From Candidatus Falkowbacteria bacterium (GTDB lineage: Bacteria; Patescibacteriota; Patescibacteriia; JAACEG01): a stretch of 64,000 nt of DNA. Shown piece by piece: positions 24,805 to 31,865 of the stretch. The DNA lies in NCBI GenBank assembly GCA_018651725.1, contig JABIDK010000005.1:64064-128063 (forward strand), written 5' to 3'. A program made the translations under genes and the position numbers. Numbering within the stretch: the first letter of the stretch is position 1; the number at the start of each line of letters is the position of its first letter. The notes beneath the pieces are model-generated. The model ran no database searches. It was not told the origin of the DNA and worked only from the letters and a program-made list of their open reading frames with translations.

Positions 24805-24880
24805 TGGAGCGGGTAGGGGGAATCGAACCCCCATCTTCGGCTTGGAAGGCCGACATAATAAGCCGTTATACTATACCCGC
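24805..24880 (-). tRNA. tRNA-Gly (anticodon UCC), CCA encoded
   Basis: The reverse complement reads GCGGGTATAGTATAACGGCTTATTATGTCGGCCTTCCAAGCCGAAGATGGGGGTTCGATTCCCCCTACCCGCTCCA. The acceptor stem is 7 bp, the anticodon stem TCGGC/GCCGA with loop CTTCCAA, and the T-arm GGGGG-TTCGATT-CCCCC. It is very similar to E. coli glyT. Confidence 0.85.
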
Positions 24881-24969
24881 GGAATCATTTTTTAATTTTT
24901 AAACTGTAATTTATTTTACTACATTTTTTATAAATGTCAAACCCTTAAATTTCTAATCCAAATTTTTAT

Positions 24970-24997
24970 TTGACAAGTTTTTTTTATTTACTATAAT
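24970..24997 (+). promoter_or_regulatory. Sigma70-type promoter TTGACA-N16-TATAAT
   Basis: TTGACA at 24970-24975 and TATAAT at 24992-24997. The leader ORF ATG lies about 10 nt downstream, so the transcript is near-leaderless. Confidence 0.55.
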
Positions 24998-25006
24998 AAA
25001 ATTATT

Positions 25007-25081
25007 ATGATAAAAAATATTACAAAAGGATTTTACTTTTTTTGGTTTTATTTCTTCTCTAAGGAGACGAATCTTTTGTAA
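25007..25081 (+). CDS. Aromatic-amino-acid-rich leader peptide MIKNITKGFYFFWFYFFSKETNLL (24 aa), a putative attenuation leader for the pheA-tyrA-aminotransferase cluster
   Basis: Nine of ten consecutive codons encode Phe, Tyr or Trp. The last codons (AAG GAG ACG, 25061-25069) contain the 5' segment AAGGAGAC (25061-25068) of the antiterminator. Confidence 0.55.
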   Translation: MIKNITKGFYFFWFYFFSKETNLL

Positions 25082-25115
25082 TGTTAAAATAATTTTTCAA
25101 AAACAAAAAGATGAA

Positions 25116-25146
25116 GTCTCCTTACAACAAGGAGATTTTTTTATTT
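25116..25146 (+). terminator. Attenuator terminator hairpin GTCTCCTT-acaac-AAGGAGA plus T7. The alternative antiterminator is AAGGAGAC (25061-25068) pairing with GTCTCCTT (25116-25123).
   Basis: The two structures share the GTCTCCTT segment and are mutually exclusive. The U-tract is TTTTTTTATTT. Confidence 0.55.
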
Positions 25147-25189
25147 CGAACCTTTTATTAACAAACAACCCAACAAACAGGAGGGAAAA

Positions 25190-25363
25190 ATGGCAGAGAT
25201 TACAGTTATAGACTGGTGCAGAAAAAGAGCAGAAGACAACAGAAAAATGTGCAATAAGCAAGTAGTAATTAAGGGCAGTAATCAGAAGAAACAAAAAGAA
25301 GAAGTCGATGAGACTATCATTGACGAAGGAATGTTACCACCGCCACGACCGATTGGTTGGTAA
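25190..25363 (+). CDS. Small protein (57 aa), MAEITVIDWCRKRAEDNRKMC...MLPPPRPIGW, absent from the ORF track
   Basis: Strong SD AGGAGGG 7 nt upstream. It is followed by a terminator. It overlaps the antisense track ORF 25097-25294, which has no RBS. Confidence 0.4.
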   Translation: MAEITVIDWCRKRAEDNRKMCNKQVVIKGSNQKKQKEEVDETIIDEGMLPPPRPIGW

Positions 25364-25378
25364 TCAGTCGGTAGCATT

Positions 25379-25421
25379 GGGAAGGGTGAATTTATTTTTT
25401 TCACCCTTCCTACTTATTTTT
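25379..25421 (+). terminator. Rho-independent terminator-like hairpin
   Basis: GGGAAGGGTGAA-tttattttt-TTCACCCTTCC followed by TACTTATTTTTC, an interrupted U-tract. Confidence 0.5.
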
Positions 25422-25448
25422 CTAAAAAAATTATTTTAAATAAAAATT

Positions 25449-26018
25449 ATGAATCAAAAACAAAAAATTGGAATATCCGGTAATGTTGGTAGCTTTTCAG
25501 AAGAAGCTGCTAATTATTATTGTCACAAAAATAAAATTAAAGATTATGAACTTATTTATCTGGTAACAGTAGAAGATACACTTTCTTCTGTAGTTGCTAA
25601 TAAAGTTGACAAAGGAATTTTTCCTATTGAAAATTCAAATGGTGGTATAGTATATGAATCAGTTTACGCTATGGCGAAATATACTTTTAATATTGAAAAA
25701 ATGTTTGAAATAGATGTTCGTCATTGTCTTTTAACTTTACCAAATAAAAAGGTTGGTGATATTAAAAAAATTGCTTCACATGCTCAAGCCTTAAAGCAAT
25801 GCAAAATGTATTTAAAAAGAAAATGGCCTAACACAGAGTTAATTGAATGGTCAGATACAGCTCAAGCAGCCAATGATTTAAATAAAGGAAAATTGGACGA
25901 AAGCACAGCCGTAATTGCGCCTGTCGGCTGTGCTAAATTATATAATTTAGATATTTTAGAAGAAGGAATACAAGACTTAAAATTTAACTTTACAAGTTTT
26001 ATAACCGCAGTTGAATAA
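25449..26018 (+). CDS. pheA: Prephenate dehydratase (PDT domain only, no ACT domain)
   Basis: IGISGNVGSFSEEAA...FPIENSNGGIVYES...ASHAQALKQCKMYL...TAQAANDL..AVIAPVGCAKLYNLDILEEGIQD matches the PDT catalytic domain pattern. Confidence 0.75.
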   Translation: MNQKQKIGISGNVGSFSEEAANYYCHKNKIKDYELIYLVTVEDTLSSVVANKVDKGIFPIENSNGGIVYESVYAMAKYTFNIEKMFEIDVRHCLLTLPNKKVGDIKKIASHAQALKQCKMYLKRKWPNTELIEWSDTAQAANDLNKGKLDESTAVIAPVGCAKLYNLDILEEGIQDLKFNFTSFITAVE

Positions 26019-26020
26019 CT

Positions 26021-26743
26021 ATGTTAAAACAAAAAATAGCTATAATTGGATTTGGGAGATTCGGCAGTTTACTTGCTGGAATTTTATCGCCGTACGGAGA
26101 TATTTTTATTATTAGCAAAAGAAAAATTAACGATACCAGATTTAAACAAATTGAATATAAAGATTTAAAAGAAATTGATTTAATAATTTTAGCTGTGCCT
26201 ATTTCATCTCTTAAAAAGGTGCTGAAAAAAATAAGTCCTTATTTAAAACAGGGGTCTGTTGTGATGGATGTCTGTTCGGTCAAAGTTTATCCGTGTCAGT
26301 GGCTTAAAAAATATTTGCCAAAAACAGTTCATATCTTAGGTTCTCACCCTATGTTTGGGCCGGACAGTGTAAAGAAAAATTTAGAAGAACTACAAATTGT
26401 ATTTTGTCCTTTGCGAATTAATAAAGAAAAATTTGATAGCATAAAAAATATTTTTAAAACAATAAAACTTAAAATCATTGAAATTACTCCGGAAGATCAC
26501 GACAAGCAAAACGCAGTTAGTTTAGCTTTAGTGCATTTTATCGGGCGAGGCTTAAGTAAGATAGACGTTGATCATCAGGAAATTACAACTGTTGGGTTTA
26601 AAAGGTTGTTACAGCTTCGCGATAATGTTACCAATGATACTGAGGAGTTATTTAAAGATATGCACAACTTTAATCCTTACGCAAAAAAGATCAGAGAAAA
26701 ATATATAGACTCTTTACAAAAAATAGATTTAATGCTAGATTAA
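26021..26743 (+). CDS. tyrA: Prephenate/arogenate dehydrogenase (TyrA family)
   Basis: N-terminal Rossmann IAIIGFGRFGSLLA. SHPMFGP motif. 2-nt gap after pheA. Confidence 0.7.
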   Translation: MLKQKIAIIGFGRFGSLLAGILSPYGDIFIISKRKINDTRFKQIEYKDLKEIDLIILAVPISSLKKVLKKISPYLKQGSVVMDVCSVKVYPCQWLKKYLPKTVHILGSHPMFGPDSVKKNLEELQIVFCPLRINKEKFDSIKNIFKTIKLKIIEITPEDHDKQNAVSLALVHFIGRGLSKIDVDHQEITTVGFKRLLQLRDNVTNDTEELFKDMHNFNPYAKKIREKYIDSLQKIDLMLD

Positions 26744-28055: not shown

Positions 28056-28094
28056 GAGGAGGATCCGCTAACCAACGGATAAAATAATAATACA

Positions 28095-28125
28095 AGGATA
28101 AGCTTTCGAGCTTATCCTTTTTCTT
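28095..28125 (+). terminator. Rho-independent terminator (overlaps the 3' end of the convergent gene)
   Basis: AGGATAAGCT-ttcg-AGCTTATCCT followed by TTTTCTTT. Confidence 0.55.
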
Positions 28126-29623: not shown

Positions 29624-29694
29624 AGATTTATTTTTCAATTTATTTTATTATTTATAATAAAAAGGTTAGCATGTTTTTTTGTTTTTGGCAAGGG

Positions 29695-29722
29695 TTGACA
29701 TATTTTTCTATTTTTTTATAAT
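29695..29722 (+). promoter_or_regulatory. Sigma70-type promoter TTGACA-N16-TATAAT for groES-groEL
   Basis: TTGACA at 29695-29700 and TATAAT at 29717-29722. Confidence 0.55.
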
Positions 29723-29732
29723 TAAAGAATAA

Positions 29733-29759
29733 TTAGCACTTTCATATTATGAGTGCTAA
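29733..29759 (+). promoter_or_regulatory. CIRCE element (HrcA operator) TTAGCACTT-N9-GAGTGCTAA
   Basis: One mismatch to the consensus TTAGCACTC-N9-GAGTGCTAA. It sits between the promoter and the groES start. Confidence 0.8.
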
Positions 29760-29836
29760 TTTTTTAATAAATCTGATAATTAATTTTGAGATTAAGCAAT
29801 AAATTTTGTTGCTTAAACTCAGATAAACTTAATTTT

Positions 29837-30127
29837 ATGAACATAAAACCACTTGGTGATAATGTTATTGTAAAACCAATCACTAAAGATGAAGTAACTA
29901 AATCCGGTATTGTTTTGCCGGATACTGTTGACAAAGAACGCCCGGAAAAAGGTGAAGTTGTTGCAGTTGGACCAGGGAAAATGACCGCGGAGGGAAAAAG
30001 AATTGAAATGAGCGTTAGAGAAGGAGACAAAATTTTATTTAAAAAATACAGTCCGGACGAAATTAAGATTGAAGGTCAAGAAGTCTTAGTAATTTCAGAA
30101 GGAGATATAATCGCAATATTAAATTAA
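29837..30127 (+). CDS. groES: Co-chaperonin GroES
   Basis: MNIKPLGDNVIVKPI..KSGIVLPDT..EKGEVVAVGPG matches Cpn10. The track ORF starts at an upstream TTG (29786); the ATG at 29837 gives the canonical N-terminus. Confidence 0.9.
   Translation: MNIKPLGDNVIVKPITKDEVTKSGIVLPDTVDKERPEKGEVVAVGPGKMTAEGKRIEMSVREGDKILFKKYSPDEIKIEGQEVLVISEGDIIAILN

Positions 30128-30182: not shown

Positions 30183-31865
<1,683 letters not shown>

Follow-up and report, generated by a model that had tools for sequence, protein, structure and literature searches.

A predicted leader-peptide attenuator with aromatic codons upstream of prephenate dehydratase genes in Candidatus Falkowbacteria and other Patescibacteria

The 64-kb segment of a Candidatus Falkowbacteria bacterium genome analysed here (64,000 nt of contig JABIDK010000005.1; the window below) carries genes for prephenate dehydratase (PDT, pheA), prephenate dehydrogenase (PDH, TyrA-like) and a class I/II aminotransferase. 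These genes are preceded on the same strand by a promoter, a short open reading frame (ORF) with a run of Phe, Tyr and Trp codons, and a series of alternative RNA hairpins. A preliminary description made from the window alone had proposed that this element acts by leader-peptide attenuation, and the logic of that proposal fits the conservation, the covariation and the dependence of folding on ribosome position reported below.

The leader element and its alternative hairpins

The features of the element are as follows.

24970 to 24997, plus strand: promoter TTGACA-N16-TATAAT, 12/12 match to the sigma-70 consensus
25007 to 25081, plus strand: leader ORF of 24 codons, MIKNITKGFYFFWFYFFSKETNLL, with stop codon TAA at 25079-25081
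25031 to 25057, plus strand: regulatory codon run, codons 9-17, nine consecutive F/Y/W codons (6 Phe, 2 Tyr and 1 Trp)
25016 to 25085, plus strand: segment 1:2 pairing (anti-antiterminator) of the untranslated RNA, -16.5 kcal/mol
25059 to 25125, plus strand: antiterminator hairpin, -19.0 kcal/mol, with the leader stop codon just within it
25113 to 25142, plus strand: intrinsic terminator with an 11-bp stem GAAGTCTCCTT/AAGGAGATTTT, a 5-nt loop and T7, -11.5 kcal/mol

The perfect TTGACA-N16-TATAAT promoter sequence occurs three times in the window against 0.03 expected. The ATG codon of the leader at 25007 is located 9 nt past the end of the -10 box, and this geometry implies a message that would be leaderless or near-leaderless, with a 5' untranslated region (UTR) of no more than ~3 nt and without a Shine-Dalgarno (SD) sequence. 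Among the ATG-initiated ORFs of 8-60 codons in the window, the leader is unique in having nine aromatics in ten residues, the runner-up having seven. The preliminary description had reported a consensus promoter about 10 nt before a 24-codon ORF with nine of ten codons aromatic, and its coordinates for the promoter, ORF, aromatic codons, paired segments, T7 and stop codon were all borne out by the sequence.

The core of the segment 1:2 pairing, a pairing absent from the preliminary description, is a mini-hairpin, TCTC (25056-59)/GAGA (25064-67), which appears as CTCC..GGAG in relatives; this conserved mini-hairpin lies directly past the aromatic codons and is the source of segment 1. The antiterminator segments described earlier, AAGGAGAC (25061-25068) and GTCTCCTT (25116-25123), are in place and pair as proposed, but the full hairpin is longer and extends from 25059 to 25125. 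In it, TAAGGAGAC (25060-68) pairs with GTCTCCTTA (25116-24), and an inner extension pairs TCTTTT (25072-77) with AAAAGA (25106-11). The terminator includes AAGGAGA at 25129-25135, followed by T7 at 25136-25142, and was called at 25113-25139 by the consensus scan; the hairpin is unique within the window. The duplex between the 3' end of the ORF and the 5' arm of the terminator has an energy of -18.8 kcal/mol, as compared with -5.4±2.2 kcal/mol for shuffled sequences, none of 100 shuffles being as strong.

Folding under constraints, a check suggested in the preliminary description, was assessed by partition functions with a ribosome footprint kept single-stranded. Naked RNA of the window adopted the segment 1:2 pairing and the terminator (terminator probability 0.81). 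With the A-site at F9-F14, the terminator probability fell to 0.03-0.04 and that of the antiterminator was 0.83-0.86; with the A-site at Y15 through the stop codon, the terminator returned to 0.81-0.95, the highest value being that for a ribosome at the stop. The outcome was unaffected by a downstream footprint of +8 to +13 nt. Because the antiterminator is favoured solely with the A-site at codons 9-14, this model points to FYFFWF as the effective sensing codons, which would cover all three aromatic amino acids, as had been suggested. The last three aromatic codons (Y15-F17) would be ineffective because they are too near segment 2, which is masked by stalls there. The earlier view that stalling anywhere in 25031-25057 leads to the antiterminator is thus retained for codons 9-14 and dropped for Y15-F17.

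Related leaders in Patescibacteria

A search with the PDT protein gave 158 loci (single loci are cited below as L with a number), of which 80 are metagenomic and 78 come from species-representative genomes, nearly all being metagenome-assembled genomes (MAGs) of Patescibacteria. An ORF scan revealed aromatic-run leaders in 62 of these, representing 56 distinct peptides. Recurrence of the leader ORF and hairpins in related genomes had been named beforehand as a check on the element, and it was found; the accompanying remark that such a device is not expected in a genome of the Candidate Phyla Radiation (CPR) type was mistaken, as leaders of this kind are common in CPR. Examples are MIKTFVKNYYFFFSFYFFSKEKSFLRCSS (L035), MIKHLQKNYYFFSFWFFFKKTSFLQCSS (L088), MNKTLQKTYFFYGFWFTSLRRLVFCDVLTTL (L038) and MNYTKNNQFFFFSFFSRHKR (several loci). 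The leaders have 5-9 aromatic codons, with a pooled composition of F 295, Y 97 and W 39; Tyr is present in 50 and Trp in 38 of the 56. Outside the aromatic run the peptide sequence is poorly conserved. Where a promoter was recognisable (49 family members), the end of the -10 box lies 6-9 nt before the ATG in 22, and the remainder have 5' UTRs of 12-35 nt with no SD.

The leaders are found on either strand and are usually oriented toward aromatic-pathway genes. Pfam domains encoded downstream include DAHP_synth_1 (two types), a DeoC-type aldolase with 3-dehydroquinate (DHQ) synthase II, a DHquinase_I-SDH-SKI fusion, CM_2, PDT, PDT+ACT and Aminotran_1_2. A leader is placed 60-100 nt directly before PDT in L011, L022, L073, L075, L092, L093, L147 and L155, and before 3-deoxy-D-arabino-heptulosonate 7-phosphate synthase in L071, L072, L094 and L097. 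Tandem leaders are present in L051, L071 and L072, and in L022 PDT is flanked by a leader on each side.

The closest relatives of the window, L088 and L089, encode PDTs that are 77-79% identical to its own and are fully syntenic, with the order tRNA-Gly, promoter, leader, terminator, 48-50-aa ORF, 13-bp hairpin and PDT. In the leader homologues of L035, L088 and L089 the reading frame is kept over a 3-nt indel and Ser, Tyr and Trp are exchanged inside the run, which is the outcome predicted by selection on translation. Eight metagenomes supplied near-identical copies of the locus (L001-L008), which show zero variation in 24881-25448 and are therefore uninformative for covariation. Samples with the locus include those from Saanich Inlet and further marine oxygen-minimum zones. 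Many records with Patescibacteria-type PDT loci (L018, L020, L023, L026, L035, L047, L049 etc.) bear MAG titles such as 'uncultured Gammaproteobacteria', 'Lysobacteraceae' or 'Planctomycetota', which are probably taxonomically wrong.

A hairpin with a T-run is located 20-70 nt past the stop codon in all 56 family leaders except that of L071, for which none was defined by the scan. Across the family, the 5' arm of the terminator is complementary to a stretch in the 3' part of the ORF that often takes in the stop codon. For a set of 57 peptides (the 56 distinct leaders and an alternative-start version of that in L020), the mean duplex energy of segment 2 with the 5' arm of its own terminator was -16.3 kcal/mol, as compared with -9.4±4.2 kcal/mol with arms from other loci. 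The own arm had a median rank of 4 out of 57, and in 46 of the 57 leaders at most one of 100 shuffles matched the real duplex. Compensatory pairs are exemplified by GGTTTTTT/AAAAAACC in L038, AGTTGTT/AACAACC in L054 and TTTATTG/CAATAAA in L103.

Plain MAFFT alignment misaligned the 3' half of the attenuator, and a covariance model of the antiterminator was therefore used, which was built from 16 leaders and aligned 32 hits. In this alignment 87.4% of cells are paired, as compared with 77.0±1.1% when shuffled (0 of 500 as high) and 48-60% when slid, and 13 of the 15 antiterminator pairs show double-sided changes; these pair counts are to be read as those of an alignment that was fitted to the structure and had the window in its seed. 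Equilibrium folding with a masked ribosome gave a switch like that of the window in 18 of 35 family leaders.

Downstream genes and other leaders in the same loci

The genes and features around the element are the following.

24805 to 24880, minus strand: tRNA-Gly(UCC) gene, upstream of the leader, with its own divergent promoter
25179 to 25363, plus strand: SD sequence AGGAGGG (25179-25185) and 57-aa ORF (25190-25363), the first cistron behind the attenuator
25378 to 25412, plus strand: second hairpin, 13 bp, -21 kcal/mol, z-score -3.8, followed by an imperfect U-tract UACUUAUUUUU
25449 to 26018, plus strand: prephenate dehydratase gene (pheA), 189 aa, PDT domain only, without an ACT domain and without an SD
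26021 to 26743, plus strand: prephenate dehydrogenase gene (TyrA-like), 240 aa
26871 to 28055, plus strand: class I/II aminotransferase gene, 394 aa, the last gene of the operon

The divergent promoter (TTGACA-N16-TAAAAT, 24913-24940, minus strand) that serves the tRNA-Gly gene lies back to back with the leader promoter. A bidirectional terminator is located at 28094-28119, past the aminotransferase gene. The leader had been placed upstream of pheA-tyrA-aminotransferase; these genes are present on the same strand, but the 57-aa ORF and the second hairpin intervene.

Gene prediction recovers the 57-aa ORF in all metagenomic copies of the locus. A Pfam search with it gave no match, and the sole match in a homologue search was the protein itself, listed at NCBI as 'hypothetical protein [Candidatus Falkowbacteria bacterium]'. 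It shares 28-33% identity with the 48-50-aa ORFs found at the same place in L088 and L089, with a common C-terminus IDxG....P.GW before the stop codon; the ORFs of L088/L089 end in IDLGRRDPVAPGW and that of the window in IDEGMLPPPRPIGW. The second hairpin begins 14 nt past the stop codon of the 57-aa ORF (9-14 nt when L088/L089 are included). In these two relatives a 13-bp hairpin occupies the matching position, with a sequence wholly unrelated to that of the window. The hairpin of the window is a candidate for a partial terminator or an RNA stabiliser. The second hairpin is also unique within the window, and the idea that it or the attenuator terminator belongs to a repeat family was rejected, as neither has further members there.

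The PDTs of the window and the 158 related loci are ~186-192 aa long and consist of the PDT domain alone. Since the ACT domain, which binds Phe, is missing, there is no evident allosteric control by Phe, and to judge by domain content such feedback seems to be absent from these enzymes. Some genomes have an extra 295-aa PDT+ACT paralogue behind a leader of its own (L014).

Between one and four small ORFs (41-131 aa) with strong SDs separate the attenuator from the first pathway gene in the window (25190-25363) and in relatives (L016, L019, L020, L027, L035, L037, L038, L051, L054, L063, L074, L084, L088-L090 etc.). They are unrelated across lineages and have no Pfam matches, and several contain paired CxxC motifs resembling zinc ribbons. 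No SD at all precedes the PDT genes that follow them. Depletion of aromatic residues in the small ORFs was considered and is unsupported (7.6% vs 8.2-9.0%).

Leaders with other codon runs are present in the same loci.

L105:827-932; L038:172-258 (covariance model hit 216-307); L054:2765-2845; L071:1290-1376; L102:1053-1112; L157:693-776: Leu-run leaders, e.g. MHKTSQKTHLLELLLMPPTRSVLCGVLTY and MKQVNQKNLLGLLLLLLQRVACFSINKI
L053:473-559 (then 624-1532); L048, minus strand; L075, minus strand; L157:143-232: Cys- and Ile-run leaders

A promoter, a terminator and a start of the leaderless type accompany each of the Leu-run leaders. The covariance model of the aromatic leaders picks up those of L105 (46 bits) and L038 (26 bits), so that the L105 leader, at least, is the same scaffold with a different codon run. 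The Leu-run leaders precede unannotated 58-142-aa ORFs without a Pfam match and not leu genes; assignment of the 129-142-aa ORFs as LeuA regulatory domains received no support from Pfam. One Cys-run leader, MKQSQIKNRNCCCCFY.., lies before a PALP/cysteine-synthase-like gene, and a second one is MKTLKNQICCCCNFL. The Ile-run leaders are MLQANQIIINIIIPDLR and MNFIQSITIIIGIIMIIIID... In L075, two paralogue-like proteins of 264-278 aa are encoded, one behind an Ile leader and the other behind a Trp/Phe leader (MKYIITNWFFWTDHPVG); in Pfam, only the latter is assigned to GCS2 (carboxylate-amine ligase).

In L067, L077, L090, L137 and L154 an aromatic leader precedes a DeoC/LacD-family aldolase gene, which is followed by DHQ synthase II in L067 and L077. 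This pair of enzymes represents the archaeal-type entry to the shikimate pathway, here in Patescibacteria.

An aromatic-looking small ORF at 29671-29721 of the window was considered as a second leader and rejected, being merely part of the groES promoter region with a CIRCE operator. A perfect sigma-70 promoter at 29695-29722 is followed there by a CIRCE-like repeat, TTAGCACT-N11-AGTGCTAA (~29744-29770), upstream of a 113-aa ORF (29786-30127), which we take to be groES, and of groEL (30183-31865). This arrangement suggests HrcA-type heat-shock control of the groES/groEL locus.

Mechanism, alternatives and meaning

Four features by which leader-peptide attenuators are recognised are found in the window. 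A short ORF with clustered cognate codons lies at the 5' end of the transcript, and an intrinsic terminator stands between it and the regulated genes. The antiterminator shares one strand with the terminator, and its other strand would be covered by a ribosome at the stop codon but left free by a stalled one. The PDT, PDH and aminotransferase encoded downstream make the sensed amino acids, with the 57-aa ORF intervening. We therefore interpret the element as a ribosome-mediated transcription attenuator that senses charged tRNA-Phe, tRNA-Tyr and tRNA-Trp. All computational tests agree with attenuation, which is strongly supported, and the probability of this interpretation is estimated at roughly 0.8.

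In the proposed mechanism, transcription would begin 0-3 nt before the leader ATG, and a ribosome would load on the leaderless 5' end and trail the RNA polymerase. With ample aromatic aminoacyl-tRNAs, it would pass FYFFWFYFF, reach the stop codon at 25079 and cover segment 2 (25060-25077). Segment 3 (25106-25124) would then join segment 4, and the terminator at 25113-25142 would release a transcript of ~135 nt. When Phe, Tyr or Trp is scarce, a ribosome stalled with one of codons 9-14 in the A-site would occupy segment 1, leaving segment 2 free to pair with segment 3 in the antiterminator (25059-25125). The polymerase would continue into the 57-aa ORF and then across the second hairpin to the PDT, PDH and aminotransferase genes. 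Should no translation take place, segments 1 and 2 would pair and the terminator would form. This scheme presumes that the leader is translated, that its translation is coupled to transcription, that the switch responds to starvation and that the second hairpin is read through.

Several observations weigh against this interpretation, in addition to the fitted nature of the covariance model alignment. Leaderless translation and transcription-translation coupling in these organisms are both presupposed. Equilibrium folding failed to give the switch in 17 of the 35 leaders, chiefly ones whose terminators are very strong or whose C-terminal extensions are long; because these terminators are so strong at equilibrium, a kinetic argument is required for them. 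The attenuator is not universal: it is missing from L010, whose PDT is 70% identical to that of the window and which has the tRNA-Gly gene and a consensus promoter, and L009 is much alike, with a plain promoter before PDT. In L012 (1233-1333) and L013 (1022-1126), copies of the scaffold comprising promoter TATAATTATCCACA, ..AAGACATTACAAAAAAG.., antiterminator and terminator have no evident ATG or aromatic run; these may be decayed or may use a non-canonical start codon. Finally, between the attenuator and pheA lie the 57-aa ORF and a second hairpin that is stable (25378-25412), and control of pheA-tyrA-aminotransferase in the window would hinge on read-through of that hairpin. If it were an efficient terminator, pheA would need another promoter.

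Such an arrangement, in which the second hairpin ends the transcript, the attenuator controls just the 57-aa ORF and pheA-tyrA-aminotransferase is expressed independently, is considered unlikely, if more probable than the other alternatives. It would account for a stable 13-bp hairpin with a U-rich stretch so close to the 57-aa ORF, a position kept in L088/L089, and for the small ORFs, variable and with strong SDs, that follow the attenuator directly in many related loci. However, no promoter-like site was found in the 36 nt available between the hairpin and pheA (25412-25449), weak promoters being still possible there, and leaders of this kind stand directly before PDT in eight loci or more. 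Read-through is favoured because the proximal U-tract of the hairpin is poor, above all in L088/L089 (AAUAAUUU...), and because the hairpin lies 9-14 nt from a translated stop codon, a placement for which poor termination is to be expected from one report of inefficient terminators near such codons (PMC4824070).

The ORF itself could be incidental, given that Phe codons arise easily in T-rich DNA, and hairpins alone could suit a factor-dependent switch, operated by a metabolite, by an RNA-binding protein of the TRAP/PyrR kind or, as in a T-box, by uncharged tRNA. This is very unlikely, as no T-box, riboswitch or protein-binding leader family was detected at Rfam gathering thresholds in the window and 20 related loci, nor at E<=10 in the leader region. 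Furthermore, the aromatic run is always in frame with a promoter-adjacent ATG, the frame survives indels, and the leader stop codon is always within or just before the antiterminator. Runs of Leu, Ile or Cys codons take the place of the aromatic run in related leaders of the same loci, one Leu copy being on the shared scaffold, and only codon reading explains such swaps. A still less probable explanation is that the ORF is an independent gene, unrelated to those downstream, whose small product is hydrophobic or aromatic and serves, for instance, as a membrane peptide or type I toxin. Its promoter is indeed strong, a terminator of its own follows, and a membrane-inserting segment could be formed by FYFFWFYFF. 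Against this, same-strand association with aromatic-pathway genes is consistent over dozens of divergent genomes, the peptide is poorly conserved outside the run, antisense RNA or antitoxin features are absent, and covariation of the terminator 5' arm with the 3' end of the ORF would be purposeless for a simple peptide gene. A chance ORF with chance hairpins might be imagined in an intergenic region of 74-77% A+T, where the minimum free energy z-score of 25000-25150 is merely -2.6; this is effectively refuted by recurrence in 62 related loci together with the promoter, aromatic-run, duplex and covariation statistics.

Leader-peptide attenuation by ribosome stalling is known from E. coli pheL-pheA and also pheM-pheST (Rfam family Phe_leader, RF01859). 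The element resembles pheL-pheA in that Phe codons are clustered in a short ORF, the 1:2, 2:3 and 3:4 hairpins exclude one another, and an intrinsic terminator stands before a prephenate dehydratase gene. It differs in that the run mixes F, Y and W (nine consecutive), the start is leaderless-type without an SD, the host is a Patescibacterium, the PDT lacks chorismate mutase and ACT domains and is followed by PDH and aminotransferase, and a small ORF and hairpin are interposed. RF01859 scored 30.1 bits in the window against a gathering threshold of 55 (E 0.0015-0.005), with one helix non-canonical; homology on this ground was rejected, the match reflecting U-rich codons and a terminator. No Rfam family reached its gathering score for the attenuator, either in the window or among 20 related loci. 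T-box riboswitches, by which aromatic amino-acid genes are usually controlled in Firmicutes, likewise sense tRNA charging through a choice of terminator and antiterminator, but there the tRNA binds RNA, whereas here codons are read by a ribosome. T-box RF00230 gave no hit at gathering score in the same set of loci and none at E<=10 within 24900-25460.

In Corynebacterium glutamicum, an aroR (Phe-Tyr-Phe) leader before aroF was described by Neshat et al. 2014, as summarised in PMC11802643. The resemblance is functional: Phe and Tyr codons are mixed and a shikimate/aromatic gene is under attenuation. The C. glutamicum leader has a short Phe-Tyr-Phe motif and belongs to another phylum, whereas 5-9 aromatic codons, often including Trp, are present here. 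Leaderless leader peptides were predicted from differential RNA sequencing in one genus, in Deinococcus deserti (PMC4007540); these are unrelated in sequence, and leaderless status is deduced here from promoter-ATG spacing alone (6-9 nt, 22/49). In 2010, leader-peptide systems were held to be known from Proteobacteria and Actinobacteria only, plus a first case in Firmicutes (PMC2965389). Full-text literature searches revealed no paper tying leader-peptide attenuation to CPR/Patescibacteria. The element represents a new family of a classical mechanism, and the phylum-level group is likewise new for it; because the mechanism is classical, the value of the element lies in phylogenetic reach and annotation and not in a new principle.

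Gene regulation in CPR/Patescibacteria is almost unexplored, as these bacteria are uncultivated and few transcription factors are annotated in their genomes. The element provides a concrete cis-regulatory system that is common among Patescibacteria, and its breadth is notable, with an aromatic regulon, Leu-, Ile- and Cys-run leaders found alongside and small ORFs that recur behind the attenuators. The leaders mark the genes that are treated as an aromatic-amino-acid regulon, including the archaeal-type DHQ synthase II route. They imply that some CPR at least synthesise their own Phe and Tyr and tune this to tRNA charging, and lend indirect support to leaderless translation and transcription-translation coupling in CPR. 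Tentatively, and with somewhat less than even confidence, we suggest that CPR use leader-peptide attenuators, usually without an SD and often leaderless, as general amino-acid sensors that govern an aromatic shikimate/Phe/Tyr regulon and often drive lineage-specific small ORFs. Dozens of unannotated small ORFs are flagged by the element as co-regulated with amino-acid starvation. If the suggestion is true, those behind the attenuators, such as the 57-aa ORF, would be starvation-induced small proteins or further regulatory devices.

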